DNA from: an uncultured Bacteroides sp.
GTDB taxonomy: Bacteria > Bacteroidota > Bacteroidia > Bacteroidales > JACABE01
Length of the DNA stretch: 63,641 bases
Assembly (NCBI GenBank): GCA_964646395.1
Contig: CAZYEM010000001.1
Span: 1-63,641 of the forward strand
Direction: 5' to 3'
The notes under the pieces are model-generated. The model was not told the DNA's origin. It saw only the letters and a program-made list of their open reading frames with translations, and made no database searches. Numbering within the stretch: the first letter of the stretch is position 1; each line of letters opens with the position of its first letter. This document shows positions 18,946-54,801 of this stretch, one piece after another. Made by a program: the position numbers and the translations under genes.

Positions 18946-19689
18946 TTATTCGTTACGTTTTTTTCTTTTAACTACCTTTTCTGGATGTTTATACTTCCAA
19001 ATATACCCACATACTTCTTTTAATTTACCTTGACAACACTTTGTAATATTTGTTGATGTCCCATATTGCTTAACAGCATCAATTATTCCTTCCCATTCTT
19101 TGATAAAGTTACCGTTTAAATCGTATTGTAAAATAATGGTTTTTTTACATTTAGACATCCTATTCTTTGTTTCATCAGTAATAACACGATTTTTGTTATT
19201 TTCAGATATTTTAATCCTATGTTCCAAAGACATTGGATTTTTATGCTTTATGCCAATTCTTGATTCTTTATGCTTTTTAAGCATTTCTGGGTCTTGCAAT
19301 CTTTTTTTGTGATATTCTGATAGCCTTTTTTTACATTCTTCAGTATGTTTTTTACCTTTATGAGAATCTGACATCTTTTTTGCTACTTCTTTAGTTATAA
19401 TTTTATTCAAACAGCCATCTCCGCCATCTGTTAAATTAACCAAACATCCTGTTCCTAAATCAACTCTACCATACAATTTAATAAATTCTATTTCTTTTGC
19501 CCTTGCGCTGTCATCATCAAGATTATCAAACAAAATATCAACTTCGTAATTCGTATTTTTTACAATATTATGCCAATGTTTGTTTCTATTATCTTTTCCA
19601 TAAGCCCTATAGTAATTTTTAGCACTACCAATACCTATGTAAAACGGTTCGTTTTTGTCTAATCTGATATGTCTATAAACGTATGGCAT
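18946..19689 (-). CDS. free-standing GIY-YIG homing endonuclease (paralogue of 15299..15988)
   Basis: The N-terminus is YVYRHIRLDKNEPFYIGIG. NUMOD3-like repeats follow (AKKMSDSHKGKKHTEE, SLEHRIKISENNKN). The C-terminus is ILQYDLNGNFIKEWEGIIDAVK...GYIWKYK. The start overlaps the stop of the upstream fibre gene (TAATG). Confidence 0.8.
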   Translation of the reverse strand: MPYVYRHIRLDKNEPFYIGIGSAKNYYRAYGKDNRNKHWHNIVKNTNYEVDILFDNLDDDSARAKEIEFIKLYGRVDLGTGCLVNLTDGGDGCLNKIITKEVAKKMSDSHKGKKHTEECKKRLSEYHKKRLQDPEMLKKHKESRIGIKHKNPMSLEHRIKISENNKNRVITDETKNRMSKCKKTIILQYDLNGNFIKEWEGIIDAVKQYGTSTNITKCCQGKLKEVCGYIWKYKHPEKVVKRKKRNE

Positions 19690-22600
19690 TATTTTGTAGC
19701 TACAATTTTATGAAGTTCGTCTATTTCTGCTTTTAACTCTTGTATTGCTTTTACTAAAACTGCAGTTAATTGTCCATAAGATAATCCCTTCATACCTCTA
19801 TTGTCTGTTGATACTAATTCTTTAATTACTTCTTCAACTTCCTGTGCTATAAAACCAACTTGTTCTAAATTATCTTCTTTCATTTTATAACTTCTTGGCT
19901 TTAACTTTAATACTGCATCTAAGCCATATTCAATATCCTTAACATCTTTTTTAATAGAAATATCTGATGCATCAGTCCATACCCCTGCACTTGATAAAGT
20001 TCCTTGATTACTACCATTCCACCATGCCATTGTGCTACCATTCATATAGCATTGTCTATAATTACCACCATCATAAACTGCCATACCAATTGCATCAAGT
20101 GCTAATCTTGCACTTGCAGAATTTGTTCCAATTCCCATTAATACACTACCCCCCGATGTGATTCTCATTCTTTCTGAATTGCCTGTTCTTATACTAAAAT
20201 CACTTGCACTTGTTGTTCCTACAAAAGAATCACTACTAACTCCACACTCAAGCATCACTGTTGTACCAGCAGGATTTGTTATTTTTACACCTTTCGTTCC
20301 ATCTACTGCTGCATTTGCAACCGCTAAATGTAATAAAGCACTTGGACTTGCAGTTCCAATTGCAACTGATCCTCCTAATGGTTGTAATAAAATAGGGTAA
20401 TTAATATTACTATTATTAGCATCTTTAACTTGTAACCACATACCATAAGATGCACCATTATAACCACCGATATTTAATTGTGGCCCTAAATTACCCGTAA
20501 TTGAAAATAAGTTATTTGTATCAGCAGTCATTGATGGATTACCAGAAGTTCCAAATACACTTAATCTTGCTATGTCATTTGCATTATTAACTCTTACACT
20601 ACTTGAGAATGTAGCAGCACCAGTAGTGCCTATTGTAAGTCTTGCAGTAGCATTTGTGCCTAAAATTAATTCTTTTGAATTTGGGGTATATATTTCTAAT
20701 CCTTCAGCACCCGTTGCACTTATTATTTGTGCCATAAAATTAGTTCCACTTATACCAGCAGATGCACCTTTTTGTCTAACTGCAACTGCATATAAATCAG
20801 CAGAATATCCAGTTATAGTATTATTTGCAGATGTTGAATTTGTGCCAACAACAGTTAATGCTTGATTACTATTAAACGTAGCACTTGTACCAGCTAAAGC
20901 TCTAGATACTAAAGTAACAGTTGTTCCATCATCTGTAATTGCACTATCTCCTATTGATGCGGATGCGGTGAACTTTGGTATGGTATTAATTGTACCACTA
21001 CCAGCAATACCACTATAAGCTCCTACTGCATAAGAATAAGCATATACTACTACTATATCATTTACTTGACAAGCAGTAGCTAATATTATACTTGTACCAT
21101 TGGTCGCAGTATATTCTGATTGAGCTAAATTAGAACCATTATAAAATACATCTATTAACCCTTGAGTATATGTAACTGCAAATGTGGTCTGACCAGCAGT
21201 CGCAGTAAATGTAGTTATTGTTCTAAGTGCATTGGTTGGTAAAAATGCAGTCAAATAGTTATCAATTTCAACAATCTGACCAACTGTTAAAGCATCTGTT
21301 AATACCACAGTAGTACCATTGGTTGCCGTATAATCCACGCCATTAACCAATTTAACTCCATTTACAAACACATCTACCATTCCTACGCTATAACCATTGG
21401 TTACAGTGAAAGTTGTTTGACTTGCTGTTGCAGTAAATACTTGAACTGCTCTTGCAGAAGTGGTTGCGTTACCCGAAGTGCCTGATGAACCAGAAGTACC
21501 TTGCGCCCCTGATGTACCTGAAAGACCGCTAGTACCTGACGTACCAGTTTCGCCTGACGAACCAGTGCCGCCAGATGTACCAGAGCTACCGCTAGTTGCA
21601 CTTGTTCCAGAAGAACCGGAAGTACCAGTTTCCCCTGATGAACCGGTTGCGCCAGATGTTCCACTTGATCCGCTAGTACCTGATGAACCAGAAGTGCCTG
21701 CTATTTGACCTACTGAAGTTATTACATAAGAATAGTTTGTTGATCCTTCGGTATACCAATTTATATTGTGAGTTCCTGATCCAAAATTTGTAACGTAAAT
21801 CTTTACAATAATGCGATCTGTATCAAGAATCGCAGTTGTTGGAAGCACTAAGTCTGTAAGTACCTCAACCGGTGTTGAAGCATCTAAAAAGTCTACTTCT
21901 GAAGCATTTGTAGGTATTATTGTACCATAACCAACGCCCGCAGAGTTTGCTAATTCTATTGTTACATATGCTTCAAAAGCGTTACCATTTGCTTGTTTTA
22001 GAAAATGTAAATGAAATCTTTGTACTCCGCCCGGTATAATGGTAAATCCTAATTCTGGAGTTAGAAATGAACTAACTAAAGCAGTTGATCCTGAACTTAC
22101 CCCAGAAACAGTTACAGTTTGCTGTGCTGCTGTTGAAGGTTCGGTAGCTAATACCTTATAAGGAGATACATCAGAAGATGCACTTTGGTTAAAATAATAA
22201 GTCTGTCCTGCTGAAATGCCGCTTACTCCGCTTGTTCCTGCTGTTCCTGAAGTACCCGTTGTTCCACTTGTGCCTGTTGTACCACTTGTACCGCTTGAAC
22301 CAGAGGTGCCTGCCGTTGCAGAAGTACCTGATGTACCTGCTGTTGCAGAAGTACCAGAAGTACCGCTTGAACCATCGCCACCACTCGCGCCATCCAAGTT
22401 CACTGTCCATGCGCTATAAGTACCACTACCCACTGTTCTAGTAGGGGCTAAAAATGTTAAAGAACCTGTATTTGCATCATATGATACTACCTCGCACTCT
22501 TGAAAGTTTGAAGCATCATAAACTATAATTATTGATTGAGCAGGGCTATATCCCAATAGTGTTCCTATTGTTATAGTACCTGCATTGCCTAAAGTAAATG

Positions 22601-23702
22601 TTGTAGTAGATGTTGTTCTATATCTATCTCCTGAAAGACCTGATGTACCTGTTGTACCCGAAGTGCCACTAGTTCCAGTTGTACCGCTAGTTGCGCTTGT
22701 ACCTGATGAACCACTAGTACCTGTTGTGCCTGAAGTACCATTTATACCTGAAGTACCTGACGAACCGCTTGAACCACTGCTTCCACTTGTTGCAGATGTT
22801 CCGGAGGAGCCGGAAGTACCACTAGAACCGCTTGAACCACTTGAGCCAGATGAACCGCTAGAGCCACTTGAACCTGAGCTTCCTGAACTACCAGAAGTAC
22901 CAGTAGTACCGCTAGTACCACTTGTAGCAGAGCTACCACTTGAACCAGAGCTTCCACTTGTACCAGAAGAACCATCACCACCAGAAGCTCCATCTAAGTT
23001 CACTACCCAATTAGAGAATGTTCCACCGCCTACAACTCTATTAGGATCACCAAATACTAATTCTCCTGTAACAACATTATAAGAAACTACCTCACATTCT
23101 TGAAAGTGAGTATTATCATGTACTACAATAATTGATTGAGCAGGAGAGTATGATAAGCCGGGAGAAACCATAAGATATCCACCAGTTCCTAATGTAAAAA
23201 TAGATACAGATATTGTATAATACTTATCCCCACCAATACCTGAAGTACCAGTTGTTCCAGAAGTTCCTGCGGTGCCTGCCGTCCCTGATGAACCAGAAGA
23301 AGAAACATAGCTAGATACAAAATTATCTATCTCTACATTATCGCCTACTTTTAAAGGATTATTAAGTATTACATTAAATCCATCTGTGGCTGTAAAATCG
23401 CTTGGGAATAATTTTACTCCATTAACAAAAACATCCACCATCCCATTATCATATCCGCTAGGAATATAAAAAGTAGTTTGTCCTGCTGTTGCTACAAAAT
23501 TATTTACAAGTCTACCTGCCGTACCTGCAAAACCAGAAGTACCAGCAGAGCCGGAAGTACCAGCAGTGCCAGATGAACCAGAAGTACCGGCTGTTCCTGA
23601 AGTAATATTACCAACAGAATCTACAACACCATTGGCGGCAATTAACACACCATTTAATTCTCTTATTTTTACTTCACCCGTAAAAAGACCTTGTATTGCC
23701 AT
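19689..23702 (-). CDS. large modular collagen-like tail fibre (1337 aa) with S74-like C-terminal chaperone domain
   Basis: It has at least five Gly-X-Y tracts. A roughly 60-aa F(V/T)ATAGQTTF...VDVFVNGVKL domain occurs three times. A roughly 77-aa GD(R/K)Y...W.VNL(D/A)GASGGDGSSG domain occurs twice. The C-terminus is SDISIKKDV...QVGFIAQEVEEVIKELV... Confidence 0.8.
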   Translation of the reverse strand: MAIQGLFTGEVKIRELNGVLIAANGVVDSVGNITSGTAGTSGSSGTAGTSGSAGTSGFAGTAGRLVNNFVATAGQTTFYIPSGYDNGMVDVFVNGVKLFPSDFTATDGFNVILNNPLKVGDNVEIDNFVSSYVSSSGSSGTAGTAGTSGTTGTSGIGGDKYYTISVSIFTLGTGGYLMVSPGLSYSPAQSIIVVHDNTHFQECEVVSYNVVTGELVFGDPNRVVGGGTFSNWVVNLDGASGGDGSSGTSGSSGSSGSSATSGTSGTTGTSGSSGSSGSSGSSGSSGSSGSSGSSGTSGSSGTSATSGSSGSSGSSGTSGINGTSGTTGTSGSSGTSATSGTTGTSGTSGTTGTSGLSGDRYRTTSTTTFTLGNAGTITIGTLLGYSPAQSIIIVYDASNFQECEVVSYDANTGSLTFLAPTRTVGSGTYSAWTVNLDGASGGDGSSGTSGTSATAGTSGTSATAGTSGSSGTSGTTGTSGTTGTSGTAGTSGVSGISAGQTYYFNQSASSDVSPYKVLATEPSTAAQQTVTVSGVSSGSTALVSSFLTPELGFTIIPGGVQRFHLHFLKQANGNAFEAYVTIELANSAGVGYGTIIPTNASEVDFLDASTPVEVLTDLVLPTTAILDTDRIIVKIYVTNFGSGTHNINWYTEGSTNYSYVITSVGQIAGTSGSSGTSGSSGTSGATGSSGETGTSGSSGTSATSGSSGTSGGTGSSGETGTSGTSGLSGTSGAQGTSGSSGTSGNATTSARAVQVFTATASQTTFTVTNGYSVGMVDVFVNGVKLVNGVDYTATNGTTVVLTDALTVGQIVEIDNYLTAFLPTNALRTITTFTATAGQTTFAVTYTQGLIDVFYNGSNLAQSEYTATNGTSIILATACQVNDIVVVYAYSYAVGAYSGIAGSGTINTIPKFTASASIGDSAITDDGTTVTLVSRALAGTSATFNSNQALTVVGTNSTSANNTITGYSADLYAVAVRQKGASAGISGTNFMAQIISATGAEGLEIYTPNSKELILGTNATARLTIGTTGAATFSSSVRVNNANDIARLSVFGTSGNPSMTADTNNLFSITGNLGPQLNIGGYNGASYGMWLQVKDANNSNINYPILLQPLGGSVAIGTASPSALLHLAVANAAVDGTKGVKITNPAGTTVMLECGVSSDSFVGTTSASDFSIRTGNSERMRITSGGSVLMGIGTNSASARLALDAIGMAVYDGGNYRQCYMNGSTMAWWNGSNQGTLSSAGVWTDASDISIKKDVKDIEYGLDAVLKLKPRSYKMKEDNLEQVGFIAQEVEEVIKELVSTDNRGMKGLSYGQLTAVLVKAIQELKAEIDELHKIVATK
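21465..21705 (-). repeat. collagen-like tract in the 1337-aa fibre (approximate limits)
   Basis: The region translates as GTSGSSGTSGSSGTSGATGSSGETGTSGSS...GAQGTSGSSGTSG. Limits are estimated from the extent of the shadow ORF. Confidence 0.6.
22212..22391 (-). repeat. collagen-like tract (about 20 triplets, with Gly-to-Ala interruptions)
   Basis: Covers aa 438-497: GAS GGD GSS GTS GTS ATA GTS GTS ATA GTS ... GIS. Confidence 0.7.
22623..22991 (-). repeat. collagen-like tract (about 41 triplets, three ATS interruptions)
   Basis: Covers aa 238-360: GAS GGD GSS GTS GSS GSS GSS ATS GTS ... GLS GDR. Confidence 0.7.
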
Positions 23703-25811: not shown

Positions 25812-27164
25812 TTATGCCAAAACTTGTTGACGAAGGAAATGCTGTACTCCCAAACACTCAAGGCCTTGCGCAGTAGTCCAAGAACATGTCCAGTTCATTG
25901 CATCTCCGTTAGGGTTAACTGGAGATAATGCACCTGTATGGATTTCTCCGATCATGTCATTACCATACTTAGTTTGAGTTGGTACATAACGTACTCTCAT
26001 TGCAGAATCAAACCCACCACCTTCAACTTTTACTCTGTTGTTGTACGGGATGTAGTAAACAGACTTGTTGATAGTTGTTTGGCTAAACAACACTGGTTGG
26101 TCTTGGATTGGCATTGCCATGTAATGCAATTGGAATCCGCCGTAAGATACTTTATCTACTGTCAAATCTAATTCTTTACCGTCTACAACGATACGAACTG
26201 ATTGAACACCAGAAGAACCTAAAGCCTTCCAATATGTATCATGCGCACGCTTAGCTGCACTTGATCCAAACACTAAATAATCTTTAGGAGAACGGTTAGC
26301 AATTAACACGTCTAAAGCGTTATCAATGTTTGTTTGTTGTACTGTACCTAAAGTACCATTAACTAATGTAGAACCAAACATTTCAATGTATTTGTTCAAA
26401 CCACGAGTTGTTTGTACCGGTCCACCACCATTTGAACCTTCTGTGTTAGCATCAGTTAAGATAGGGTTAGTATCGCTGAATGTTGTAACAGACATATCAC
26501 CAGCAATAAATGCTGCGTTGATTTGACCTTTCAAACGGATTGCTTTCTCTAAGTGATCCTTAACGATAAATTTGTTTTGACCGTTAAATTCTACTTCGAT
26601 TGTTGCTGCGTTTTGAACGTCAGTGATCTTAGAGATTTCTCTAAAGATTTGATACTTGTTAGTATACTTAGTTAAACCGAAACGTAAGTTACTTTGAGAA
26701 ACTGAGTTCTCACCTACTGCTACTGAGAACAAACTTAATTTGTCGCCAGCAGTTAAAGTAGCGTTAGCGCCAGATACAGTCTTAATATAAACTGTGTCAA
26801 CGCCTGAAGTTGTTACTACGTTAGTTACGATTGCAGAAATAGCACCAGTTGGAACCAACACTAAATCATCTTTACGAGCTTGACCTGAAGTCGCTGCTGT
26901 ACAAGTGAAGTTTAATGAAGTTGTACCAGAACCGTTTACTGAACCGCCAGTTGTATCTAACAACTTAAATAAACTTTCGTTTACAAAAGTGTAGTACAAA
27001 GGTTGACCAGTTGCGATTGGTTTTTTTCTATCGCCTAACCATAAGATGTCTGTAAGAGCATCTTCGTTTTGAATGTCAGTCACTAATTTATTGATCTCTC
27101 TTGTATCTAATACTGGATCAATAGAGCTGACGTAGGATTTACTAATTGCACCTATGCTTGCCAT
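25812..27164 (-). CDS. major capsid protein (450 aa)
   Basis: It follows the portal and scaffold genes. Its G+C content and codon bias are visibly higher than those of neighbouring genes. A strong terminator lies downstream. Size is typical of an HK97-fold coat protein. No motif-level proof. Confidence 0.7.
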   Translation of the reverse strand: MASIGAISKSYVSSIDPVLDTREINKLVTDIQNEDALTDILWLGDRKKPIATGQPLYYTFVNESLFKLLDTTGGSVNGSGTTSLNFTCTAATSGQARKDDLVLVPTGAISAIVTNVVTTSGVDTVYIKTVSGANATLTAGDKLSLFSVAVGENSVSQSNLRFGLTKYTNKYQIFREISKITDVQNAATIEVEFNGQNKFIVKDHLEKAIRLKGQINAAFIAGDMSVTTFSDTNPILTDANTEGSNGGGPVQTTRGLNKYIEMFGSTLVNGTLGTVQQTNIDNALDVLIANRSPKDYLVFGSSAAKRAHDTYWKALGSSGVQSVRIVVDGKELDLTVDKVSYGGFQLHYMAMPIQDQPVLFSQTTINKSVYYIPYNNRVKVEGGGFDSAMRVRYVPTQTKYGNDMIGEIHTGALSPVNPNGDAMNWTCSWTTAQGLECLGVQHFLRQQVLA

Positions 27165-27195: not shown

Positions 27196-28344
27196 TTACC
27201 TGCCTAATACACCCACCTTAGCCCTGTTTTTAATAGCTTCGGCGAATGATTCATTAGGTTGGGCAGGTGTGCTACCGACAGGTCTGCGAGCATTTTGCCC
27301 TTCCTCTACGATAGTTTTCAATCCTAATGATTTGCCATAGTTCACCAAGTCTTTTTCATAGTTTGGATTCAAAGCTACTAATGCAATTTTTTGCAATTTT
27401 GCGACATCTGGAATCAATTTGCTTGGATCTGCCTCTTGCGGATTAACAGCTATTGCCCTTTGCCATTTCTCTGAATCTAAAGCTACTGCCATCAAATTTT
27501 CAGGCTTATCAACAGTGAAGTTGAATTTACCATTATCGCCTAAATCAATAGCAACTCTCTTGCTTTCCATTAGGTTTCTAGTGGCTTCATGTTCCTTGAA
27601 AAATTGAAGTGCTTGTTGAACTTGTTGGACTTGTTGAGCTTGTATTTCTTGCTGTTCTGCCATCCTGTTCTGAGTATCAATCGCCTCTTGCGATCTAGCC
27701 ACGTCTGGAATCTGAAAAGCCTTCTGTTCTACAATTCTTTTTTGTCTTATTAATTCAGCATCAGCTTCTAATTGGATTAAACCAACCTCCTTATCTTCTT
27801 CAGATGCATATTCTGATAACTTATACTTTGCTTGGTATAATTTCTCAATCTTATCATCTGCTAAATGAGGGTATTGTAACTTTAATTCATCAAGAACTAA
27901 ATCTTGGTGATTTACCGTTTCCCAATCAAATGCCTTTGCTTCTAAATATTTGTAAGCATCTCCCCCATTCTTTCTAAATTCAGCAAATTCAGCTACAAAA
28001 TCATCATAGCCCAATTCCTTTAGAATATCTTTTGGATTTGCCTTTTTTAATTCTTCTTTCCAATCTATAATGTTTGCTGCGGCTTCGCCTTCTTCACCTT
28101 CATTACTTTCACCATCAAATGATGGCATAGAAAAAGATGCTTGATTTTCTTCTAATGGGGCTGGCTCGCCTTGAACTTGATCATTACTTTGTTCTTGCGC
28201 TTCAACCGGCTCTGCCTCTACGGGTGCAGGTGCAAACGATTGTGCTTCATATTCTTCCGGTGTTGGAATGCCAGAACTAACCTTATAGGTTGGTCTAGCT
28301 GGTTCTTGTTGTTGCTCTTGTTGTCCGTTTTGTTCTTCTGTCAT
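27196..28344 (-). CDS. scaffolding protein (382 aa)
   Basis: It is very acidic and Gln-rich, with low-complexity helical composition (QQEQQQEP..., QEIQAQQVQQVQQALQ). It sits directly upstream of the capsid gene. Confidence 0.6.
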   Translation of the reverse strand: MTEEQNGQQEQQQEPARPTYKVSSGIPTPEEYEAQSFAPAPVEAEPVEAQEQSNDQVQGEPAPLEENQASFSMPSFDGESNEGEEGEAAANIIDWKEELKKANPKDILKELGYDDFVAEFAEFRKNGGDAYKYLEAKAFDWETVNHQDLVLDELKLQYPHLADDKIEKLYQAKYKLSEYASEEDKEVGLIQLEADAELIRQKRIVEQKAFQIPDVARSQEAIDTQNRMAEQQEIQAQQVQQVQQALQFFKEHEATRNLMESKRVAIDLGDNGKFNFTVDKPENLMAVALDSEKWQRAIAVNPQEADPSKLIPDVAKLQKIALVALNPNYEKDLVNYGKSLGLKTIVEEGQNARRPVGSTPAQPNESFAEAIKNRAKVGVLGR

Positions 28345-28399
28345 ATAGTTGATTTTCGTTTACGAAATTATGTAAAATTAATTAAAAAAATAAATTTAA

Positions 28400-28885
28400 T
28401 TAATTAATGTGTTGATCAAATTCTAAAAGCTCTTTAGTGTATTCAGCAACTTTATACTTAGCTAACAAATCTCCGTAATGACCGACTGCTTTTACTTGAA
28501 TTGTAACGAATTGTTGTAAGAAAATGCCAACTGCGCAATCTTCTTCTTGGGCTTTCTTTTGTAGCTCTTTGTACATATTTAATACATCTAGCTCTGTTTC
28601 GTACCCAATTTCTAATGCATCGCCAATTGATTCAACTTTATCCTTCATTGCTTCAATTTCAGGCAAACTAGCGCAATCCCCCATATCATTCATAAAATCA
28701 ACGATAATTTGGTAATGCGTCAATTCTTCCGCACTTTCATCTAAAAAATATTTCTGACTACCAAAGTAACCTAATCTTTGTAATTGATTAGCTAAGTGCT
28801 TCCAAAGGTTAGATTGATATAATTCCATTTGAAGTGCCTCTTGCAAACCTTTTCTCAAGTTTGCTGACAATAAAGACTTTACCAT
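28400..28885 (-). CDS. ferritin-like protein (161 aa) with conserved ferroxidase-centre ligands
   Basis: It aligns by eye to FtnA/H-ferritin. ALQMELYQS supplies the E17 equivalent. ESAEELTHYQ supplies the ExxH pair. GYETELDVL supplies the E94 equivalent. FLQQFVTIQ supplies the Q127/Q141 equivalent. The FtnA site-C glutamates are absent, and the conserved Tyr is replaced by Trp. Confidence 0.75.
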   Translation of the reverse strand: MVKSLLSANLRKGLQEALQMELYQSNLWKHLANQLQRLGYFGSQKYFLDESAEELTHYQIIVDFMNDMGDCASLPEIEAMKDKVESIGDALEIGYETELDVLNMYKELQKKAQEEDCAVGIFLQQFVTIQVKAVGHYGDLLAKYKVAEYTKELLEFDQHIN

Positions 28886-28886
28886 T

Positions 28887-31241
28887 TTATTTTTCTGTTT
28901 TTGGTGTTTGTAATTGTTTCTTTTCGCTTACTACTATTCTAGCATCTGCTTGTATTCTTTGAGCAATAACTTTTGCTTCTTTTTGAATTTCTGCTTCTTG
29001 AATATCTTTATCCTTCTTGCCCATTTGGATAATGTAATCCCATTGCTTTTCAGCATTGATACGGGCAACATCGACTTCTAATTGAGTTTGTAATGTAACA
29101 CGCTTCTCTTGCTCTGCAACCTGTACTGCCATAGCATTACCTTGAGATGCTTCCTGAATTTTTTGTAATTCAAATTCTTGCAATTTCTCTCTGCGCTTTT
29201 TAATTCTATAAGCTAGAATCATAGAAGCCATTTTTAAATTTTTGGTACTCATTACCAAAATCTTATCTTCTGGCTCTATCAATCCTTGACTATCTCTTAT
29301 GTTTAATTCTTGAATTAACTGTTGTCTTTCAAAGTCAGATGGCACATCTTCAATAAAGATACCGAACTCATGAATTGAAATATCAGGATTAATTTGGAAA
29401 AATTTAACAGTTTCTTCACCTAATGATCTAGCGTAACCTTCTACCTTGCCTAATTTAACTGCAATTTGAACTTTGCTAACAATGGCATCTGCTAAATCTT
29501 GTATTAATTGTTTATCTGCAAAACTTAATAGATACAAAGCATTATTTGTACTTTCCATTGCTGCATTTGCAACTGGTACTAATGTTTTAGCATTTGGAGT
29601 AGATCCGTCTGTTAATTCATTTAATCCAGATACTTGGCGCATCATATCCAAAGTGTTTTGCAACTCTTGATATAATTGACCAAACACGGCTAACTGACCT
29701 GATGCTTCAATAGATACAGGCTTATAATTAGGATTTTGACTTAGTAAGTCTGTTGATCTGTAAGGCACAACAAAGTTTGAGAAAATAAAATCCATAACTT
29801 TTGTAGGATTCATTTTTTCTCCACCACCACCAAAGTCAACTCCTTCAAGTGCATTTAAGTCTATGTTAATCAAATAAGGGATTAGCTTATTTGACATATT
29901 TTGTAATTTAAACCAAGTAAGGCTAGCTTTATCTTCAAGCGGGATTAGCCTTTCAGTGATTCCAGCAAAACGCATTTTATAAAAATTCCAAGAATAAAGC
30001 TGAATATTCAATTTAGTATCCCACCAAGATGATGGTTTTCTAATTTGATTCTCTGACATACCCCAATCATACATATAGTCTGTTTGGATAAGCCACTTGC
30101 ACTTATAAACTACCTTACGAGTAACCGGCATAAAAATAGGTTCTGCTTGACCTTTCATGCTAAAATCTATCATGTTAGGTATAGTCCCCATTTTATCAAT
30201 AACACCTTCTTTGGTTACAGATAGTTTAGTTGCGTCTTGGTATTTTGTCTTACCAAATCTTACATTACCTCTATTGTCGACTTCTTCTTTGTATGTATAA
30301 TCGTTCCAAGATAAAAATTCAAAATCTAAAACAAGTACTTTGAATCTATTCCAATATTTAGAATAATCAGTACCATACATAAAGTTTGATGGATTACCAA
30401 AACGACCTGCTACGCTTTGTACGATTTGATTCATTTGCTCTACTGTAAACCATGGCGCAAGATCTCCTACATATACTTCTCTAACTTCGCCCCAATGTAC
30501 TAAATCTGAAAAATCATTTTTAGCACAATAAGATAACACCATGTTTTCAGGGTTAATCTCTCTTAATTTTACTTGACCATTTTCATCAATATATTCTGTA
30601 TAACCGCCCATTCCAAAATCAAAAAGATTTTCTATTGTGCGTTTTCTTTTTTCTTCAAATTTATTTTGATACATAGCTAAAGATGCTGCCATCTCTGCTT
30701 CCATAGACATAACGTGCTTGTATCCAAATTGCTCCTCCATCTTTAATTGCTCTAAGTCTTGAGCTTCGCCCGGCTGAGGCGCTAACACTGGGCTGTTAAG
30801 TAATTCTTGATTACCTGCCTTTTGTGCCGCTTCTCTCATTAAAATCTTTACCTTCATTTCGGTAAAGTAATTATCTTCTTCACTTTTAGCAATTGGATCT
30901 ACTGCAAATGCATTTATCGCATATCTTCTTTGAACTAATTTTGATATTGCTATCTCTCTAAACTTTGTTAAAAAAGATGGCGGAGTCCAATCAATGTTCA
31001 ACCAAGTTTTATCTTGTTGCTCATCTACGTTTAAAAGTTTTTTATATTTAGTTGTACTTTGTCTACCTAATGCATATTCTCTAATTTCGTTCATTTTGGA
31101 TTGACCAAAATTTAACATATTGTTAGGAACATACCCTCTTGAATCACCCCAAGCAGCTTTGCAGTATTGTAGTATCCAATCGTATCCTTTTTCTCTAGGA
31201 TCTATCTGCTGGTTAGGGTATGTGTTGGTGGCCTGTTGCAT
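28887..31241 (-). CDS. portal protein (784 aa)
   Basis: The call rests on size and on position upstream of the scaffold and capsid genes. The C-terminus is a charged helical tail. No specific motif was verified. Confidence 0.6.
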   Translation of the reverse strand: MQQATNTYPNQQIDPREKGYDWILQYCKAAWGDSRGYVPNNMLNFGQSKMNEIREYALGRQSTTKYKKLLNVDEQQDKTWLNIDWTPPSFLTKFREIAISKLVQRRYAINAFAVDPIAKSEEDNYFTEMKVKILMREAAQKAGNQELLNSPVLAPQPGEAQDLEQLKMEEQFGYKHVMSMEAEMAASLAMYQNKFEEKRKRTIENLFDFGMGGYTEYIDENGQVKLREINPENMVLSYCAKNDFSDLVHWGEVREVYVGDLAPWFTVEQMNQIVQSVAGRFGNPSNFMYGTDYSKYWNRFKVLVLDFEFLSWNDYTYKEEVDNRGNVRFGKTKYQDATKLSVTKEGVIDKMGTIPNMIDFSMKGQAEPIFMPVTRKVVYKCKWLIQTDYMYDWGMSENQIRKPSSWWDTKLNIQLYSWNFYKMRFAGITERLIPLEDKASLTWFKLQNMSNKLIPYLINIDLNALEGVDFGGGGEKMNPTKVMDFIFSNFVVPYRSTDLLSQNPNYKPVSIEASGQLAVFGQLYQELQNTLDMMRQVSGLNELTDGSTPNAKTLVPVANAAMESTNNALYLLSFADKQLIQDLADAIVSKVQIAVKLGKVEGYARSLGEETVKFFQINPDISIHEFGIFIEDVPSDFERQQLIQELNIRDSQGLIEPEDKILVMSTKNLKMASMILAYRIKKRREKLQEFELQKIQEASQGNAMAVQVAEQEKRVTLQTQLEVDVARINAEKQWDYIIQMGKKDKDIQEAEIQKEAKVIAQRIQADARIVVSEKKQLQTPKTEK

Positions 31242-31317: not shown

Positions 31318-31863
31318 TTAATATAATTTTCTGCCTTCCAATAAACTATCATAATTCATTTCCATTTTTGTGTTATATGAAAATCCGTTGTATTGAATAG
31401 CAATAAAAGGATCGGAAACCACATACTTCCCTAACCCCCCTAACGCACGGTCTATATGCTCATCTAAAGGCGTATTTAGGTATGTATCGTAAAACTTGCT
31501 GTTGACTATGTAGCAATGAAAACCAGTAAAATTATCTACTGTTTGATCTTCACGAATCTCCCCAATGTATATGCCACTCAAATAAATATCAAAATCTAAT
31601 GGCTTATTTCTTAAAAAGTACGAAAAACTATCCGGATTGGTAAAATGAACGTCATCCTCCATTATGCATATTTCAGGCAAACCTGTGTCTTTGGCATACT
31701 GAACGCATTGTTTATGAGCTAAATTAATTGCTTTTTTAACTGAATGAGAATCATATACGGCAGGGAAAAAAGAAAAGTCTTTGATGCCCTGCTCTTTAAA
31801 TTCATTCATTAACCTGTCAAATCGATCACCAGCATCAAAATTATGAATTACCGCTATCTTCAT
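31318..31863 (-). CDS. glycosyltransferase, GT25-like (181 aa)
   Basis: MKIAVIHNFDAGDRFDRL...ICIMEDDVHF shows the family-25 pattern of an N-terminal beta-strand, an R-rich helix and an EDD motif. Confidence 0.45.
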   Translation of the reverse strand: MKIAVIHNFDAGDRFDRLMNEFKEQGIKDFSFFPAVYDSHSVKKAINLAHKQCVQYAKDTGLPEICIMEDDVHFTNPDSFSYFLRNKPLDFDIYLSGIYIGEIREDQTVDNFTGFHCYIVNSKFYDTYLNTPLDEHIDRALGGLGKYVVSDPFIAIQYNGFSYNTKMEMNYDSLLEGRKLY

Positions 31864-32662
31864 TTAGATTCTGTATTATGTTGTTTAAAGCCCCTTGGTA
31901 AGTATAATACTTATTGTATATTTCTTTTATTTTTAGTTGCTTTTCAACTATGTCTATACTTGGGATACTGTTTAAAATTGGTACTATCCTATGAGCATCT
32001 TCAGCTTTTATGACTACCCCATAATCTTCAAAATTGGCATCAAAGCAATTAATAAACTCATCGCTAATATACACAGGTATAGTTTCGTACTGGATGCACT
32101 CGGCGATTCTAAAGCTGTTTAAACCATACCCTCTAGGGCATAATCCGAATATAGATTGACTAATAATACCACAAAACTTATTTACATCATGCTGCTCTTG
32201 GGATATGTAATAATCTGAATTTTGAATATTAAATACATAATTTCTTATTGGGTGAGTATTAGTGCCAATAAAAGAAGCAAAAATTGTTTTTTTACCATTC
32301 CATTTAAAACTATGTGGCATACAAAGCAAAGGTATCTCTATCCCTTCTTTCTTACTCATATTGAATACCAATATATCTAAATCTTTAAAGTCAACCAAAA
32401 CCCCATCATCGTATTGGCAAATTGTCCAATATCGTTGATTTCTAGGCAATGCATCTACATAGTCTTGCAGGCTTTTTCTAGCTACCGGATCATTCCCATA
32501 ATTGTTATTTACATGATATGATGTCCAATGGATTCTTAAATAAGCCCTCCCATTAAAATCTGGTATAAACCTAGAAGATACCCATTCTTCAAAAATAGTA
32601 TAATTTTCAAAAGGATAAACCGTGTTTATGGTAGGCATAAACTCCTTTGGTACGTCTATCAT
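31841..32662 (-). CDS. exostosin-like glycosyltransferase (GT47 family)
   Basis: GLCPRGYGLNSFRIAECIQYETIPVYISD matches the exostosin C-terminal motif CPxGxxxxSxRxxExxxxGxIPV. Confidence 0.65.
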   Translation of the reverse strand: MIDVPKEFMPTINTVYPFENYTIFEEWVSSRFIPDFNGRAYLRIHWTSYHVNNNYGNDPVARKSLQDYVDALPRNQRYWTICQYDDGVLVDFKDLDILVFNMSKKEGIEIPLLCMPHSFKWNGKKTIFASFIGTNTHPIRNYVFNIQNSDYYISQEQHDVNKFCGIISQSIFGLCPRGYGLNSFRIAECIQYETIPVYISDEFINCFDANFEDYGVVIKAEDAHRIVPILNSIPSIDIVEKQLKIKEIYNKYYTYQGALNNIIQNLNEDSGNS

Positions 32663-33294
32663 ATATTAAATTTTCTTACATAAAGGGCATCAGTCCACGT
32701 TTCGGCAACCCAATCGCCTGTTTCAACTCTTTCAAATCCGCGCTGCATCATGAAATAATCTAAATCAGGAATAAGCATACATCCTTTATAAGTTTCCTTC
32801 ATATTAACCTCTAGCAATGCGTAATCTATATTTTTAATCAAATCACCCATACCTTCAATAGCCAAATGCTCTGCACCTTGAAGATCTACGTTAAGAAAGT
32901 TTATATTTTTAAAACTATAACCCTTAAACAGAGTATCAACTCTCTTAGTTTTCATTGTTATCTGTTCTATGTAATGCACTTCTGGATGGATTAAAAGATG
33001 AGTACCAAGCTCAAACATTGATGAACTCTGGCTTTCATTATTTGATACATTAAAAACCACTTCTTCATTGTCTACATTACTTAGACAAGCGTTAAAAGCT
33101 CTTTGCTTTTCATAAGGTTCTATGTTTTTTACTAATTCTAAATAAACAGATGGTATTGCTTCGACCCACAAAACATCGCCCTTACAATAATTATCGTATT
33201 CTTTTCTTTCTTGCCCTGTTGATGCGCCTAAGTGAAGAACGCCTTTTATATCTAACTTATGCTTGCTGACTAAGTAATCAAATGATATCATCAT
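32659..33294 (-). CDS. FkbM-family SAM-dependent methyltransferase
   Basis: VLHLGASTGQE, VLWVEAIPSVY, VVFNVSNNESQSSSMF and NFLNVDLQGAEHLAIEG follow the FkbM (Methyltransf_21) pattern. Confidence 0.7.
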   Translation of the reverse strand: MMISFDYLVSKHKLDIKGVLHLGASTGQERKEYDNYCKGDVLWVEAIPSVYLELVKNIEPYEKQRAFNACLSNVDNEEVVFNVSNNESQSSSMFELGTHLLIHPEVHYIEQITMKTKRVDTLFKGYSFKNINFLNVDLQGAEHLAIEGMGDLIKNIDYALLEVNMKETYKGCMLIPDLDYFMMQRGFERVETGDWVAETWTDALYVRKFNI

Positions 33295-34304
33295 ATACTT
33301 TTGCTTTTATGTTTATTAACTTCTAATTCAATCCAATTATATAATTTAACCATGCCTTCCTCAAGTGGCTTTGTTGGACGCCAACCTGTTACCTTTTCTA
33401 CCAACTCATTGTTTGAATTTCTACCTCTAACACCTAATGCGTTTGATTCAACATTATTAATTGTTAAAGTTTTGCCTGAAATTTTAATAACCATTTTAGC
33501 CAAGTCATTAATTGATATCATTTCATCTGAGCCAATATTAACAGGATAAACATAATCCGATTGCATCAATGCTTTTATACCATCTAAACACTCGTCAATA
33601 AATAAAAAACTACGCTGTTGTAAACCATCACCAAATATTTCAATTTCTCCACCATCTGTTGCTTCTGCTACCTTTCTACACACTGCTGCTGGAGCTTTTT
33701 CTCTGCCGTCCTTGTAAGTACATTCAGGAGAAAATATGTTATGGAAACGACCAATTCTTACATCTAACCCTTTGTTTCTTCTGAAAGAATCATAAATCTG
33801 TTCTGATAGTAGCTTCTCAATGCCGTACACACTATCTGGCTTGCCATCCCAAGCTGAATCTTCTTTTAATGATGCGCTATCTAATGACTCTTGTAGTCTT
33901 TCGCTATAAGCACAAGCACTTGATGAAAAGAATAATTTCTTAACTCCACATTCTGACGCAGCCTTTGCCACATTTAAATTAATCATTGTTGAATCATAAA
34001 TAATATCTGCATCATTAACGCCTGTAAATACATACAAAGCGCCCCCCATATCGGCAGCTAATTGATACACTTCATCAAATGCATTAACGTTATCATGCCA
34101 TGTTGTTTGTTGGGGGTTCCATAAAGCCTTTGATACACTTGATGGATTACGCAAATCTAAAATAAATGCTTCATCTGCTTCAGACTTTGAAAATTCAGGC
34201 TGTTTGACATCTACTGATCTTACCCAATAACCTTCGCTTTTTAATCTTTTTACTAATTGCATCCCAATCATTCCATGACCGCCTAATACGCAAGCTGTTT
34301 TCAT
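33291..34304 (-). CDS. gme: GDP-mannose 3,5-epimerase-like SDR (GDP-L-galactose / GDP-L-gulose forming)
   Basis: There is a GGHGMIGMQL Rossmann motif and a YGIEK YxxxK motif. Long blocks match plant/bacterial GME as I recall it: LAADMGG, SSACAY, RIGRFHNIFSP, GREKAPAAVCRK, GDGLQQRSFLFIDECLDG, PVNIGSDEMISINDLAKMV and GVRGRNSNN. Confidence 0.8.
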   Translation of the reverse strand: MKTACVLGGHGMIGMQLVKRLKSEGYWVRSVDVKQPEFSKSEADEAFILDLRNPSSVSKALWNPQQTTWHDNVNAFDEVYQLAADMGGALYVFTGVNDADIIYDSTMINLNVAKAASECGVKKLFFSSSACAYSERLQESLDSASLKEDSAWDGKPDSVYGIEKLLSEQIYDSFRRNKGLDVRIGRFHNIFSPECTYKDGREKAPAAVCRKVAEATDGGEIEIFGDGLQQRSFLFIDECLDGIKALMQSDYVYPVNIGSDEMISINDLAKMVIKISGKTLTINNVESNALGVRGRNSNNELVEKVTGWRPTKPLEEGMVKLYNWIELEVNKHKSKSI

Positions 34305-34305
34305 A

Positions 34306-34908
34306 TTAAAATTTATTTAGTTTTAAATACCATTGTTTTTTAAACCACCATAATCCCCATCCGTTAGCAGTTTCTTCTGAATGTAAAACTTTTTCTGCCT
34401 CAAATTCTCTATCTGCAATATCTGATCTGATAAATATTTTTGGCACAATTTGACTTACTGCTCTATTTACTTCATCTGCATTAAAATCATGGCCTGCTAG
34501 TACGCCCTCATCTTTTACTTTATTATACCATTCAATTACTTCTTGCTTTGTTTCTTTGTATGTGTGTGATGAATCAATATAAACAAAATCTAAAAAACCA
34601 TCATTAAACATTTTAGCACACTCTAAACTTGGGTAAGGCATTACTTCTATATAATCACCCAAACCGCTTTTTATAATGTTTTCGTATATGGTTTTCATTT
34701 GGAAAAAACCACCGTAGCCCATATTATCTATTGCATAAATTTTAAAATCTTTACCCAAGTTTTTTAATTCTTGTGCTAGATATATAACACTATCGCCATT
34801 TGCAATACCGACTTCTGCTAGTCGTGCGTTGTTGGGTAACTCTTTTGCAATTCTTTGATAGAAATGCTGAAAATCAAACATAATTAAATCATTCATAATT
34901 TTATCCAT
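34306..34908 (-). CDS. class I SAM-dependent methyltransferase (Methyltransf_24 / CmcI-like sugar O-methyltransferase type)
   Basis: AEVGIANGDS is the SAM motif I. IYAIDN, FVYIDSSHTYKETKQE and GVLAGHDF are also present. Confidence 0.65.
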   Translation of the reverse strand: MDKIMNDLIMFDFQHFYQRIAKELPNNARLAEVGIANGDSVIYLAQELKNLGKDFKIYAIDNMGYGGFFQMKTIYENIIKSGLGDYIEVMPYPSLECAKMFNDGFLDFVYIDSSHTYKETKQEVIEWYNKVKDEGVLAGHDFNADEVNRAVSQIVPKIFIRSDIADREFEAEKVLHSEETANGWGLWWFKKQWYLKLNKF

Positions 34909-35630
34909 TCAGGTTTAACAATATCGCTAGTGTCTAATCCGCACCATCCTTCACTAAACCAAAACTGCGGAAAGATTACTTTTTTATCTTCATTTTTATT
35001 TAAATACGCACCCCACCAAGAGAATGTAGATGGAGAACATACTTGATGCTCACACCAGCTCATTTCTACAAGATCGGATTGCTCGTCTGTATTTCCAGAA
35101 TATTCACAATCGCTTCTATGCGCAAATGTTTCCATACACCAACTAATGTCATCTGAAAAGAATTTAAACTTATAGTTAGGGAACATAGCCATTGCCTTTT
35201 CATACCATTCTATTGTTACCTCCGGATGTTTATCTCTTAATGTTACATAATCGCCTCGTCTTACATGGATAGAAACATAGCCATCCATTTTTTTATATGG
35301 AAAATTTAACAAGTAAAGTATTTCATTACGATAGTTGTCAAAGTATTTAGCTGTTTGTCTGTACCCTTCAATTATTATATTCTTATCTTTCCATGATGAA
35401 TCGTATGGTAATTCTTCGTAAGAATGTTTTGTTTCCCATAAGTGAACTTTTTCAAGTCCGGGATTATAGCTATCATTAATTAAATGCGAGCAATAGATGG
35501 GGTTCCATTTTGGGTTGCTAGTTTCGTTTGGAACGGTAAAATTTAAGTCATGCCGTAACGCATAGGCCATAGCCGTAGCACACTCAAAAAGCCAGTTGCC
35601 CATTCTTCCCGCGTTGTTGAAGGTTACCAT
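34893..35630 (-). CDS. GT11 alpha-1,2-fucosyltransferase-family glycosyltransferase
   Basis: GRMGNWLFECATAMAYA corresponds to GGLGNQMFQYA. SIHVRRGDYV corresponds to HxRRGDY. FSDDISWC and SPSTFSWWGAYLN are the other family motifs. Confidence 0.8.
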   Translation of the reverse strand: MVTFNNAGRMGNWLFECATAMAYALRHDLNFTVPNETSNPKWNPIYCSHLINDSYNPGLEKVHLWETKHSYEELPYDSSWKDKNIIIEGYRQTAKYFDNYRNEILYLLNFPYKKMDGYVSIHVRRGDYVTLRDKHPEVTIEWYEKAMAMFPNYKFKFFSDDISWCMETFAHRSDCEYSGNTDEQSDLVEMSWCEHQVCSPSTFSWWGAYLNKNEDKKVIFPQFWFSEGWCGLDTSDIVKPEWIKL

Positions 35631-35650
35631 AGGGGATAAAGTTAATTAAT

Positions 35651-36346
35651 TTAATTTAATTCCCTAATTTTTTCTATTAATTTTTCTCTAAAATCTCCTG
35701 TTCTTTGCACATTATTTATATAATGCGATTGATTGTGGACTAAATGATTGTATCTTAACCCTTCAACTATATGGATAATTCGACCTGACATTAGCCAATT
35801 GTAATTCTGAAATAAGCTATCGCTGGTTACCGGATCTATTTCCGCATCCCATACTTCACAATAAGAATTTTTATTTACAAAATAGTTCATGCAATTCAAG
35901 CAAGTTTCAAACATTGACTTGTCTATATATTCCGGTAAGTTGTCTTTGGTTACAATTAGGTTAGCGTATTCTGTGTAATTAAACATTGGCATAGCCCAAT
36001 CTGGTGCCAATACCGTGTCTTTATCCCATTCTTGCTCATATATCTTGTCCAAATAGTCTGTGTCTATTTCATTGTCAGAATCAAGTATGATACAATAGTC
36101 TGTTGTTGATAGGCTTATAGCCACATACTTGTTTGCATAACAATCTCTGTTGCTTAGGTTTCTAAATAGTTTAACCTTTTTTAGCTTATCACATTCTTGC
36201 TTTAATTGGTTATAAATAGGCAAATCACTCATGTCGTCCACTATTACAATGTTTTTAACACGAGGATCGTCATATACCTTACTAAAACTTTTCAATGTCA
36301 TTTCTACCCTATTCCAAGTTGGTATACATATACAAATTTCTCTCAT
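35651..36346 (-). CDS. GT2-family glycosyltransferase
   Basis: ICICIPTWNRVEMT, VIVDDMSD and ILDSDNE (the DxD motif) are present. Confidence 0.7.
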   Translation of the reverse strand: MREICICIPTWNRVEMTLKSFSKVYDDPRVKNIVIVDDMSDLPIYNQLKQECDKLKKVKLFRNLSNRDCYANKYVAISLSTTDYCIILDSDNEIDTDYLDKIYEQEWDKDTVLAPDWAMPMFNYTEYANLIVTKDNLPEYIDKSMFETCLNCMNYFVNKNSYCEVWDAEIDPVTSDSLFQNYNWLMSGRIIHIVEGLRYNHLVHNQSHYINNVQRTGDFREKLIEKIRELN

Positions 36347-36963
36347 AAATTTCCTAGTTTTTGATAATATCTTTGTTCTATAAATGGCTGCCAGTCAATA
36401 AAGGTATTGCCTATATCTGATACGCCCGGCCTTTGAGTGCATAAAAGTGGATAAGTAATGTAAGTTGTGCCATGGCATTGTATCTTATTTACAATGCAAT
36501 TGTCTATTGGAGCTTCTAAAACTGCCATCAATATCTCCTTCATCCCATGTAATGATATTGCCCAAGCATGGGTGGCATATGCGTTTTCTACTAATAAAAG
36601 GTTAGGTGATGCTCTTAATTTAAACCCCGTAGTACATTGCGCCCCAAGATAAAGGATATCCCATGTAAGAGGCAATTGCTTTACAACTTCATTCATTGTA
36701 TCGTTAGGGTTACCACAAGAATCAACAAACATAGCGTCATCTTCAAATATCAAGACTGACTCCCATTCGTTCTTTATCGCTTCTCTAAATATGTTCTCTA
36801 CTGTAATGCGCAAGCCTTCTGCTCCATTTTCATGCTTTGTGGCATTAATCAATTCGTATGGGATATTCCATTTGTAAAGTTGTTCTGCAATCTCTATTAG
36901 TCTATCTGTTCTTTCCGGCAAGTTTATGACAAATATTTTAGTAAAAAAGTTAGTCCAAGACAT
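36343..36963 (-). CDS. GT25-family glycosyltransferase (LgtB/Lic2B-like)
   Basis: KIFVINLPERTDRL and VLIFEDDAMF are present. The start codon shares nt 36963 with the TerL stop. Confidence 0.7.
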   Translation of the reverse strand: MSWTNFFTKIFVINLPERTDRLIEIAEQLYKWNIPYELINATKHENGAEGLRITVENIFREAIKNEWESVLIFEDDAMFVDSCGNPNDTMNEVVKQLPLTWDILYLGAQCTTGFKLRASPNLLLVENAYATHAWAISLHGMKEILMAVLEAPIDNCIVNKIQCHGTTYITYPLLCTQRPGVSDIGNTFIDWQPFIEQRYYQKLGNL

Positions 36964-54159: not shown

Positions 54160-54801
54160 TTATTTAGTTTCTTGTGTTTGTAATTGAGCAAATTGCTGAA
54201 TGTCTTGTTCAGCCATATTAATACCCCAAAATTTCAATGCACGCGCTATAATGTTATTGATGTAAACATCTGTAAATTCTAATTGAGTGCTAGTGTTTGG
54301 ATTGTAAGTTATTGTTCTACCTGCCTGAGTATATCCTAAAACCGGAGTGGCTGGTCTGCGTAAATAATTGTAAAAGCCTGTTTGAGTTGATTGAGGATAT
54401 ATTTGAAATCCGACAGCCGTGTCTTTTGCAATTGGTTTGGCAGTTGAAACAGGTCTTAATTGACTTGTTAATGCAAAAGGTAATTCATCTTCGTTAACAA
54501 ATCTTACTGCGTTAATCGTGCTTCCTGTAACCGTATATGGGTTACCAATCATATGCAAATAATCAGATCCAAATGTTACCTGTCCGTCTGATGCAGATGT
54601 AAACTGAACCTGTGATCTTAGTTTCCTAATTGCATCATGAATTATTTGAGTAACGCCATATTGAGAAAACCAATCTTCGGTTGCCTCAAGCTGTGCGTTA
54701 TCAATAGTCTGCATCGCTTCGGGTATTGTTATAAATACCCCTCTTTCTTTTCTTACGATAAAGACTAAGAAATTATATACATCATTAATGTTGTATGCCA
54801 T
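54160..54801 (-). CDS. virion structural protein (213 aa)
   Basis: Positional only. Confidence 0.35.
   Translation of the reverse strand: MAYNINDVYNFLVFIVRKERGVFITIPEAMQTIDNAQLEATEDWFSQYGVTQIIHDAIRKLRSQVQFTSASDGQVTFGSDYLHMIGNPYTVTGSTINAVRFVNEDELPFALTSQLRPVSTAKPIAKDTAVGFQIYPQSTQTGFYNYLRRPATPVLGYTQAGRTITYNPNTSTQLEFTDVYINNIIARALKFWGINMAEQDIQQFAQLQTQETK

Follow-up and report, generated by a model that had tools for sequence, protein, structure and literature searches.

How does a gene for ferritin, the textbook iron store of cells, come to lie among the head genes of an uncultured, aquatic tailed phage, and what might its product do there? The question is raised by a 63,641-nt stretch of contig CAZYEM010000001.1 (positions 1 to 63,641 of the forward strand; assembly GCA_964646395.1, deposited as an uncultured Bacteroides sp.), referred to below as the window, in which an open reading frame (ORF) of 161 amino acids (aa) with an ATG start (28400..28885, minus strand) sits between the gene for the portal protein and that for a putative scaffolding protein. 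A preliminary description of this DNA had called the ORF a ferritin by eye, placed it in the slot where many phages keep the prohead protease, and offered two readings of it, either a cargo of the procapsid comparable to that of encapsulins or an auxiliary iron or oxidative-stress gene expressed late. Our analysis confirms a classical ferritin, encoded by an accessory gene that entered the head module of one phage sub-lineage and that belongs to a large family specific to phages. Of the two readings, we tentatively prefer the second.

The match of the 161-aa product to the Pfam model PF00210 (Ferritin) covers residues 12-144 at 62.2 bits (gathering cut-off 24.5; E 6.4e-17), and its Rubrerythrin match is weaker. 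Its nearest solved relatives are the ferritins of T. maritima, A. fulgidus and P. furiosus (E ~1e-10) and E. coli FtnA. An AlphaFold2 model, made for the monomer only from an input alignment of 19 close homologues, reaches a pLDDT of 91.2 and contains helices at residues 8-38, 41-67, 87-115 and 117-150, followed by a short E helix at 153-158. Ferritins accounted for all 50 of the top 50 Foldseek matches, and the model superimposes on 24-mer ferritins with TM scores of 0.90-0.93 and an rmsd of 1.4-1.6 Å over 155-160 residues. Profile search and structure prediction thus bear out the family assignment that had been made by eye.

The same holds for the di-iron centre. Alignment with E. coli FtnA and the human H chain, both self-consistent in residue numbering, pairs E21 with E17 of FtnA and E27 of the H chain, E53 and E54 with E49, E50 and E61, E62, H57 with H53 and H65, E98 with E94 and E107, and Q130 with Q127 and Q141. 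The ligand series Glu, Glu-x-x-His, Glu, Gln listed in the preliminary description (E21, E54/H57, E98, Q130) is therefore in place, and two further remarks in it, that a Trp replaces a conserved Tyr and that the glutamates of the third iron site of FtnA are lost, proved accurate as well: W28 stands at the position of Y24 in FtnA and Y34 in the H chain, and three of the four site-C glutamates are gone, with I129, K132 and A133 replacing E126, E129 and E130 and only the equivalent of E49 (E53) kept. Across 38 relatives, with identities down to 23%, there is no exception at E21, E54 and H57 and hardly any at E98 and Q130. Trp28 is invariant within the clade of >60% identity and confined to it, and more distant phage relatives have Tyr. 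The C-terminal LLEFDQHI is an ordinary E-helix motif. Past the canonical E helix the chain runs on for just 3-5 residues, and helix A begins at residue 8, with no terminal extension or targeting peptide at either end. The product is a genuine classical ferritin of full length with its H-chain-type di-iron centre intact, and it is very probably catalytically competent.

Prokaryotic 24-mer ferritins (1VLG/1Z4A, 1S3Q, 2JD6 and FtnA, 1EUM) resemble the window protein in length, in the four-helix bundle with an E helix and in the ligands of sites A and B, but it is only 22-28% identical to them, has Trp for Tyr24, lacks most of site C and is encoded by a phage. With animal H-chain ferritin it shares the E, ExxH, E, Q pattern and an Ala at the position of FtnA E130 (IQVKAVG in the window ferritin, EQVKAIK in human H; at the C-terminus, LLEFDQHI and YLFDKHTL), although identity is ~25% and Trp takes the place of Tyr34. 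Gly120 and Leu123 align with D131 and E134, the Asp and Glu lining the threefold channel of the human H chain.

Several narrower identities were rejected. Against the NCBIfam FtnA equivalog NF007638 the protein scores 34.7 bits, with a cut-off of 178, and site C is mostly lost; because the score is so far under that cut-off, we regard the protein as a divergent ferritin and not as an orthologue of bacterial FtnA. It is not a Dps protein, as its best Pfam, PDB and Foldseek matches are all ferritins and Dps-like viral proteins reach TM scores of only 0.57-0.67. It is not a prohead protease either, since scans with Pfam, PHROG and NCBIfam gave no match to a peptidase family. The weak BFVD matches of the model (TM 0.57-0.67) are to multi-domain proteins of 290-763 aa from uncultured Caudovirales that are named 'Prohead protease' or 'DNA-binding protein Dps'; if real, they would represent Dps-like domains fused to head-maturation proteins, and four-helix bundles match loosely.

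The position of the gene is best understood from its neighbours and from relatives of the window phage. Upstream lies the portal gene (784 aa, 28887..31241, minus strand; phrog_6547 'portal protein', E 1.5e-67), whose product shares 26% identity with its counterparts in Flavobacterium elemo and Cellulophaga podophages. A single nucleotide separates its TAA stop from the ferritin ATG, one fewer than the 2 nt first reported, and in close relatives stop and start overlap as TAATG; co-orientation and tight coupling with the portal are thus upheld. Nearly all genes from ~59.5 kb down to 12.6 kb share one strand, so that membership in an operon is a property of most of this genome. Downstream, beyond an AT-rich spacer of 55 nt (28345..28399, minus strand), is a gene for a 382-aa protein with an acidic, Gln-rich N-terminus (27196..28344, minus strand). 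We call it a putative scaffolding protein only from its composition and its place between portal and major capsid protein (MCP); it has no match in Pfam, PHROG or NCBIfam, and its position corresponds to that of a 339-aa 'structural protein' in elemoF. The MCP itself (450 aa, 25812..27164, minus strand) is of HK97 fold and of the SU10_MCP family, according to PF17236 in its homologues and to Foldseek. Shells of HK97 capsids or encapsulins make up 28 of its 29 top Foldseek matches (best E 4.6e-11), a result that we use qualitatively only because the AlphaFold model has a pLDDT of just 51.

The order portal, ferritin, scaffold, MCP is found in ~30 loci whose portals are at least 78% identical to that of the window. 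Other relatives carry no gene at this junction. In L132, with a portal 84% and an MCP 94% identical, the portal stop is 7 nt from the scaffold ATG, and the ferritin is missing together with a small hairpin of the spacer described further below. In four more loci (L139-L142; portal 63%, MCP 69-72%) the scaffold follows the portal directly, and three genomes of 63-74 kb with the same synteny (L154-L156; MCP 58-64%) have an empty slot and no ferritin within 10 kb on either side. In elemoF the terminase gene is followed by those for the portal, the 339-aa structural protein and a 457-aa virion protein, and no gene is interposed between portal and scaffold. In a 72-kb relative (L032/L140) the ferritin lies elsewhere, between homologues of the window ORFs 54785..55651 and 54160..54801. 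On the minus strand of the window these ORFs, of 288 aa with a weak Cpn10/GroES-like match and of 213 aa, form the junction that is the ferritin site in L032; elemoF has a GroES-like gene just ahead of its terminase.

The default order in this phage family is therefore portal, scaffold and MCP without an intervening gene, and the comparison shows that the ferritin entered the space between portal and scaffold within a single sub-lineage of a podophage family with SU10-type MCP. Since relatives, the elemo phages included, carry no gene there, the 'protease slot' of the preliminary description is not a slot in this family. The remark that prompted it survives in part: no protease was found among the window ORFs scanned, but the conclusion that the ferritin had taken its place does not follow, the junction being just as empty of one in the relatives. 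Near-identical capsids, with 94% identity in MCP, are made without a ferritin in cis, and the gene is therefore dispensable for assembly. We conclude firmly that it is an accessory mobile cassette, neither a capsid-assembly factor nor a replacement for the protease.

Comparison of the window ferritin with a 90%-identical allele in L008 gives a dN/dS of 0.10 at a dS of 0.63, which shows that the gene is under purifying selection. It is nevertheless not unusually conserved, a possibility that the vertical lineage rules out. In successive members of that lineage identity to the window runs through 100, 97, 86, 83 and 78% for the portal, 100, 98, 95, 90 and 87% for the MCP, 96, 84, 70, 68 and 61% for the scaffold and 99, 90, 72, 69 and 51% for the ferritin, so that ferritin is among the faster-evolving genes of the lineage and diverges faster than portal and MCP. 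High identity outside the lineage reflects exchange. L055 and L011, which belong to a set of phages (here called G-type) that carry the gene between two giant ORFs, have ferritins 83% and 80% identical to that of the window; window portal, scaffold and MCP are undetectable in both by BLAST, and the virion proteins that they share with the window are only 25-46% identical. To L062 and L040, members of its own lineage, the window allele is only 73% and 51% identical. In a neighbour-joining tree (no bootstrap) the ferritin clades of portal-type and G-type phages are interleaved, with G-type members on the deep branches. Saturation of synonymous sites (dS ~1.9) shows that the exchange is not a recent one. 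Ferritin alleles have thus passed between phages that occur together but have no detectable relationship in their head proteins. Segments of tail fibres are 70-84% identical between the window phage and G-type phages, a mosaic exchange of host-recognition modules that suggests shared hosts and recombination.

The family to which the window ferritin belongs is large. A word-indexed search returned 569 clusters, and the best 120 of the 569 are all 71-90% identical to the window protein and 161-166 aa long, come from aquatic metagenome contigs of up to ~76 kb and bear the JGI name 'ferritin'; cluster names say only 'ferritin' or 'bacterium'. An exhaustive search of 50% representatives gave 347 of them, grading from 59% to ~25% identity, and the phage contigs with members of the family range from 28% to 67% GC. 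A search of 185,579 species genomes yielded no close cellular homologue; the only two matches lie on short contigs of metagenome-assembled genomes and have the phage arrangement of a giant ORF on either side of the ferritin. To any solved cellular ferritin the family is at most 28% identical. When 50,697 records of cultured phages were searched by tblastn with ferritin and MCP and by megablast with the head region, nothing was retrieved, the portal alone giving a match (26%). One distant member of the family (P0263) matched a 'putative ferritin' of Thermus phage phiLo, which lies near baseplate and tail genes and has a gene for a 600-aa protein as its upstream neighbour.

We examined genomic contexts at roughly 120 loci and found the family in at least six. 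In the commonest, that of G-type phages (contigs of 33-56% GC), ferritin is flanked on both sides by giant ORFs, of 900-3000 aa, at spacings from -16 (an overlap) to +11 nt. The second is the window lineage, with a phrog_6547 portal, ferritin and scaffold. The third belongs to phages with a lambda-like head and 61-67% GC (L057, L059, L093, L158, L159) and has ferritin after portal B with a gap of -4 to +12 nt, and then variable genes, the S49 prohead protease, decoration protein D and the MCP, E; in L057, L059 and L093 the ferritin and the S49 prohead protease co-exist. In the fourth (L166/L167), ferritin and three further ORFs follow a portal 42% identical to that of Mx8, where a 109-aa ORF comes after the portal. 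The fifth (L049/L050) comprises a phrog_113 portal, a MuF/SPP1-gp7-like minor head protein, ferritin and a Neck1-like protein. Odd cases include a 685-aa fusion in L024 (2967..5024), made up of a 520-aa N-terminal part without known family and a ferritin and adjoined by an AAA ATPase gene, as well as fusions or acidic, disordered-looking N-terminal extensions of 48-125 aa in P0121, P0233 and P0263, one of them beside a Laminin_G_3 virion protein. The N-termini of ferritins point outward from the cage, so these additions could be tethers.

In four head modules without detectable relationship, then, a member of the family directly follows the portal; elsewhere its neighbours are giant virion proteins of polyvalent-like character. 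A rough estimate puts the chance of finding it no more than two genes downstream of the portal in 4 of ~8 contexts, given ~75 random junctions, at ~1e-4, a figure that assumes independent contexts and ignores insertion hot spots; in the lambda-like clade other variable genes do occur at the portal junction. This recurrent adjacency strengthens the case for some link of the family with the head. In three of the lambda-like loci (L057 1894..4032, L158 4427..5959, L159 3026..4203) the ferritin is followed by a gene for a 392-712-aa protein whose N-terminus resembles decoration protein D (42-46% over ~100 aa). A TnpB/IS605 OrfB-type gene with a Cas12f-like TNB domain lies a few genes upstream of ferritin in one G-type virion module (L026 1211..2389), and an IS605 OrfB is likewise present close to the ferritin of phiLo.

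The giant ORFs of G-type phages have a counterpart in the window, a 2543-aa ORF (39353..46984, minus strand) identified by blastp against them, which contains a single HEAGH motif at residue 1387 and has no match in Pfam, PHROG or PDB. Upstream giant ORFs of G-type phages map to its residues ~320-1511 and downstream ones to 1562-2535; the break in these phages thus falls at about residue 1530, and it is in this gap that ferritin is encoded. The N-terminal part ends with the HExxH segment, the sole strongly conserved stretch, which is 66% identical between the window and L018 (~25% elsewhere). The counterpart in L028 carries InPase, a MORC-like HATPase and WLM, and it is on this ground that we call the giant protein polyvalent-like: InPase, MORC-like ATPase and WLM/HExxH peptidase domains occur in the polyvalent proteins of phages, for which packaging is predicted (PMC5512222). 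That survey has no occurrence of ferritin among its domains or their neighbours. The product of 39353..46984 is probably a packaged or injected protein of polyvalent type.

We read the window ferritin, with somewhat less than an even chance of being right, as a cytoplasmic buffer against iron and oxidative damage that is made late in infection. As in the rest of its family, 24 subunits would form a hollow cage, and each would oxidise Fe(II) at the two-iron centre of E21, E54/H57, E98 and Q130, the ferric mineral being stored inside. The gene is presumably co-transcribed and translationally coupled with that of the portal, and for this reason the protein would be made late, during DNA replication and packaging. 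In the cytoplasm of the infected cell it could remove free Fe(II) together with O2 or H2O2, limiting Fenton damage to phage DNA, and it could hold the iron released as the host is dismantled. This interpretation is favoured because the gene is dispensable and exchanged among unrelated heads, because its product has no targeting signal, and because there is precedent among viral auxiliary genes: the ferritins of giant viruses (PMC7136201) and of a myxophage (bioRxiv 10.64898/2026.09.14.751636) have both been read as genes for managing iron or oxidative stress. Of the two proposals in the preliminary description, this was the fallback, and it is the one that fits most of the data.

Several points nevertheless weigh against a cytoplasmic role. 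It leaves the positions of the gene unexplained, which directly follows that of the portal in four unrelated head modules and in other contexts is flanked by giant polyvalent-like proteins for which packaging is predicted. Genes in the interval between portal and capsid usually encode components of the prohead. Late timing is an assumption with gene order as its sole basis. No gene for a ribonucleotide reductase, a 2-oxoglutarate-Fe oxygenase, an Fe-S protein or another iron-related function was found among the annotated ORFs of the window that would supply a metabolic rationale. Finally, the change of Tyr to Trp might alter or reduce catalysis.

The strongest rival is that the ferritin goes into the head. 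One or a few cages, or else subunits, would become part of the procapsid close to the portal, as would internal or ejection proteins, and would either stay in the virion or leave it, shielding the packaged DNA from iron-catalysed oxidation or carrying iron. We regard this looser form of the procapsid-cargo idea as possible for the window ferritin, though the odds are against it. It draws on the recurrence of portal adjacency with four unrelated portal families (phrog_6547, lambda-B-like, Mx8-like, and phrog_113 with its MuF/gp7-like protein) and on the fact that the commonest and deepest-branching context is between giant polyvalent-like ORFs with overlapping stops and starts. It would also suit the relatives with 48-125-aa N-terminal extensions or a 520-aa fusion partner at the outward-pointing end of the cage, and a Dps-like protein has been detected in virions of phage G (PMC12484599). 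On the other side, members of the clade are known from genes alone and none is from a cultured phage, the window ferritin has no terminal peptide, and relatives with a 94% identical MCP do without the gene. That the same allele group occurs in phages with unrelated portals, scaffolds and MCPs argues against a co-evolved docking interface, and the junction of portal and scaffold may merely be a permissive site for insertion, as the other variable genes there in the lambda-like clade would indicate. The wider proposal, that the whole family is loaded at the portal along with injected polyvalent and MuF-type proteins, giving tailed-phage capsids an iron-oxidising nanocage, seems to us equally open to doubt, and we hold it as a minority view.

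Two known kinds of system invite comparison with such a head protein. Encapsulins with EncFtn, Flp or IMEF cargo are alike in having an HK97-fold shell gene nearby and in the iron-oxidising chemistry of a four-helix bundle; in the window, however, a 382-aa ORF separates ferritin from the shell gene, and the portal and large terminase are those of a DNA-packaging phage. The protein was also considered, and rejected, as an EncFtn or Flp cargo, being a full five-helix ferritin and not a short (~100 aa) two-helix EncFtn, and having no cargo-loading peptide. The specific analogy to encapsulin cargo in the preliminary description therefore fails, given a classical five-helix ferritin without a loading peptide, an intervening scaffold gene and an allele exchanged among unrelated heads. 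Procapsids that hold enzymatic cargo have been raised as speculation (bioRxiv 10.1101/2025.06.18.659913). The other kind comprises the morons and head-internal accessories (internal proteins of T4, Dar of P1, MuF-linked toxins, polyvalent proteins), with which the ferritin has in common its patchy presence, variable location and exchange, as well as a site in the late virion operon by portal, MuF or polyvalent genes; the window ferritin differs in being without a recognised packaging signal.

It is very unlikely that the ferritin fold has been re-used for something other than storage, for instance as an enzyme that consumes peroxide or O2, in redox sensing or as an anti-defence protein, with Trp28 and the lost site C as marks of the change. 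The invariance of Trp28 in its clade, the score far under the FtnA equivalog cut-off and the long separation from cellular ferritins are what such a proposal would build on, but conservation extends to every di-iron ligand and to the E helix, distant members of the phage family keep Tyr, and the human H chain, likewise without site C, stores iron. Least probable of all is an iron depot for iron-bearing virion parts of the 'Ferrojan horse' type (tail fibres, Fe-S tail tip), in which ferritin buffers the iron for assembly: the gene is in a late operon and the hypothesis is present in the literature, but the fibre and virion ORFs of the window have no HxH repeats, none of the virion ORFs has at least two CxxC motifs, and the fibres are collagen-repeat proteins with an S74 chaperone.

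Ferritins of viruses have been annotated before, under JGI names and in UniProt as 'uncultured marine phage non-heme ferritin', and so far they have been noted only as occasional 'auxiliary metabolic genes'. The viral auxiliary ferritins (giant viruses, PMC7136201; myxophage; phiLo) are virus-encoded like that of the window, and the first two are read as managing iron or oxidative stress, but they are mentions at the level of annotation, in contrast to a large, long-separated phage-specific lineage of hundreds of clusters that recurs in head and virion modules. In the literature we found no published analysis of phage ferritins, and no description of a phage-specific clade, of the Trp variant, of mobility or of recurrent adjacency to portal or polyvalent genes. 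If the protein acts in the cytoplasm, as we prefer, it would show in a new case that phages handle iron and oxidative damage at a late stage of infection, with relevance to iron cycling in lakes and oceans. A location in the head would make this the first virus capsid to bear a ferritin, an equivalent in nature, on the phage side, of encapsulins loaded with ferritin and a living link from phage procapsids to encapsulin nanocompartments, and would directly support the idea of enzymatic cargo in procapsids. Whether it is packaged is the question that carries most interest; under either reading the Trp-for-Tyr variant of the ferroxidase centre is a natural experiment in ferritin chemistry.

The spacer between ferritin and scaffold contains the hairpin mentioned above, TTTCG-TAAA-CGAAA (28354..28367, minus strand), ~10 nt upstream of the scaffold ATG, which occurs only once between genes in the window. 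It is kept throughout the portal-ferritin-scaffold lineage, including one C-to-T change that preserves G.U pairing, and in L132 it is gone along with the ferritin; it may serve as a regulatory or RNA element carried along with the cassette. In one relative the hairpin looks like a Bacteroidota -7 box (TAnnTTTG), and a search for TTG...TAnnTTTG gave counts at chance level genome-wide. Scans for sigma-70 promoters and intrinsic terminators found nothing scoring above chance. The GC content of the gene (33.7%) matches that of the genome (33.6%), and no tRNA genes were found in the window.

Between the genes for the large terminase (36963..39011) and the portal are eight co-oriented genes for glycan modification (31318..36963, minus strand), whose products are GT25-like, GT47/exostosin-like, an FkbM methyltransferase, an NAD-dependent epimerase/dehydratase, Methyltransf_24, GT11 fucosyltransferase-like, GT2 and GT25. 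Variable glycan clusters occupy the same place in L154-L156, and these genes may serve in glycosylation of the virion or of the host surface. The tail-fibre ORFs (19689..23702 and 13199..14725, minus strand, and also 17416..18933) combine collagen triple-helix repeats with S74 intramolecular chaperone domains at the C-terminus. Opposite to the long late unit runs a 957-aa ORF (9794..12667, plus strand) with a GT1-type domain at residues 171-284 and a GT9 heptosyltransferase-like domain at 767-870.

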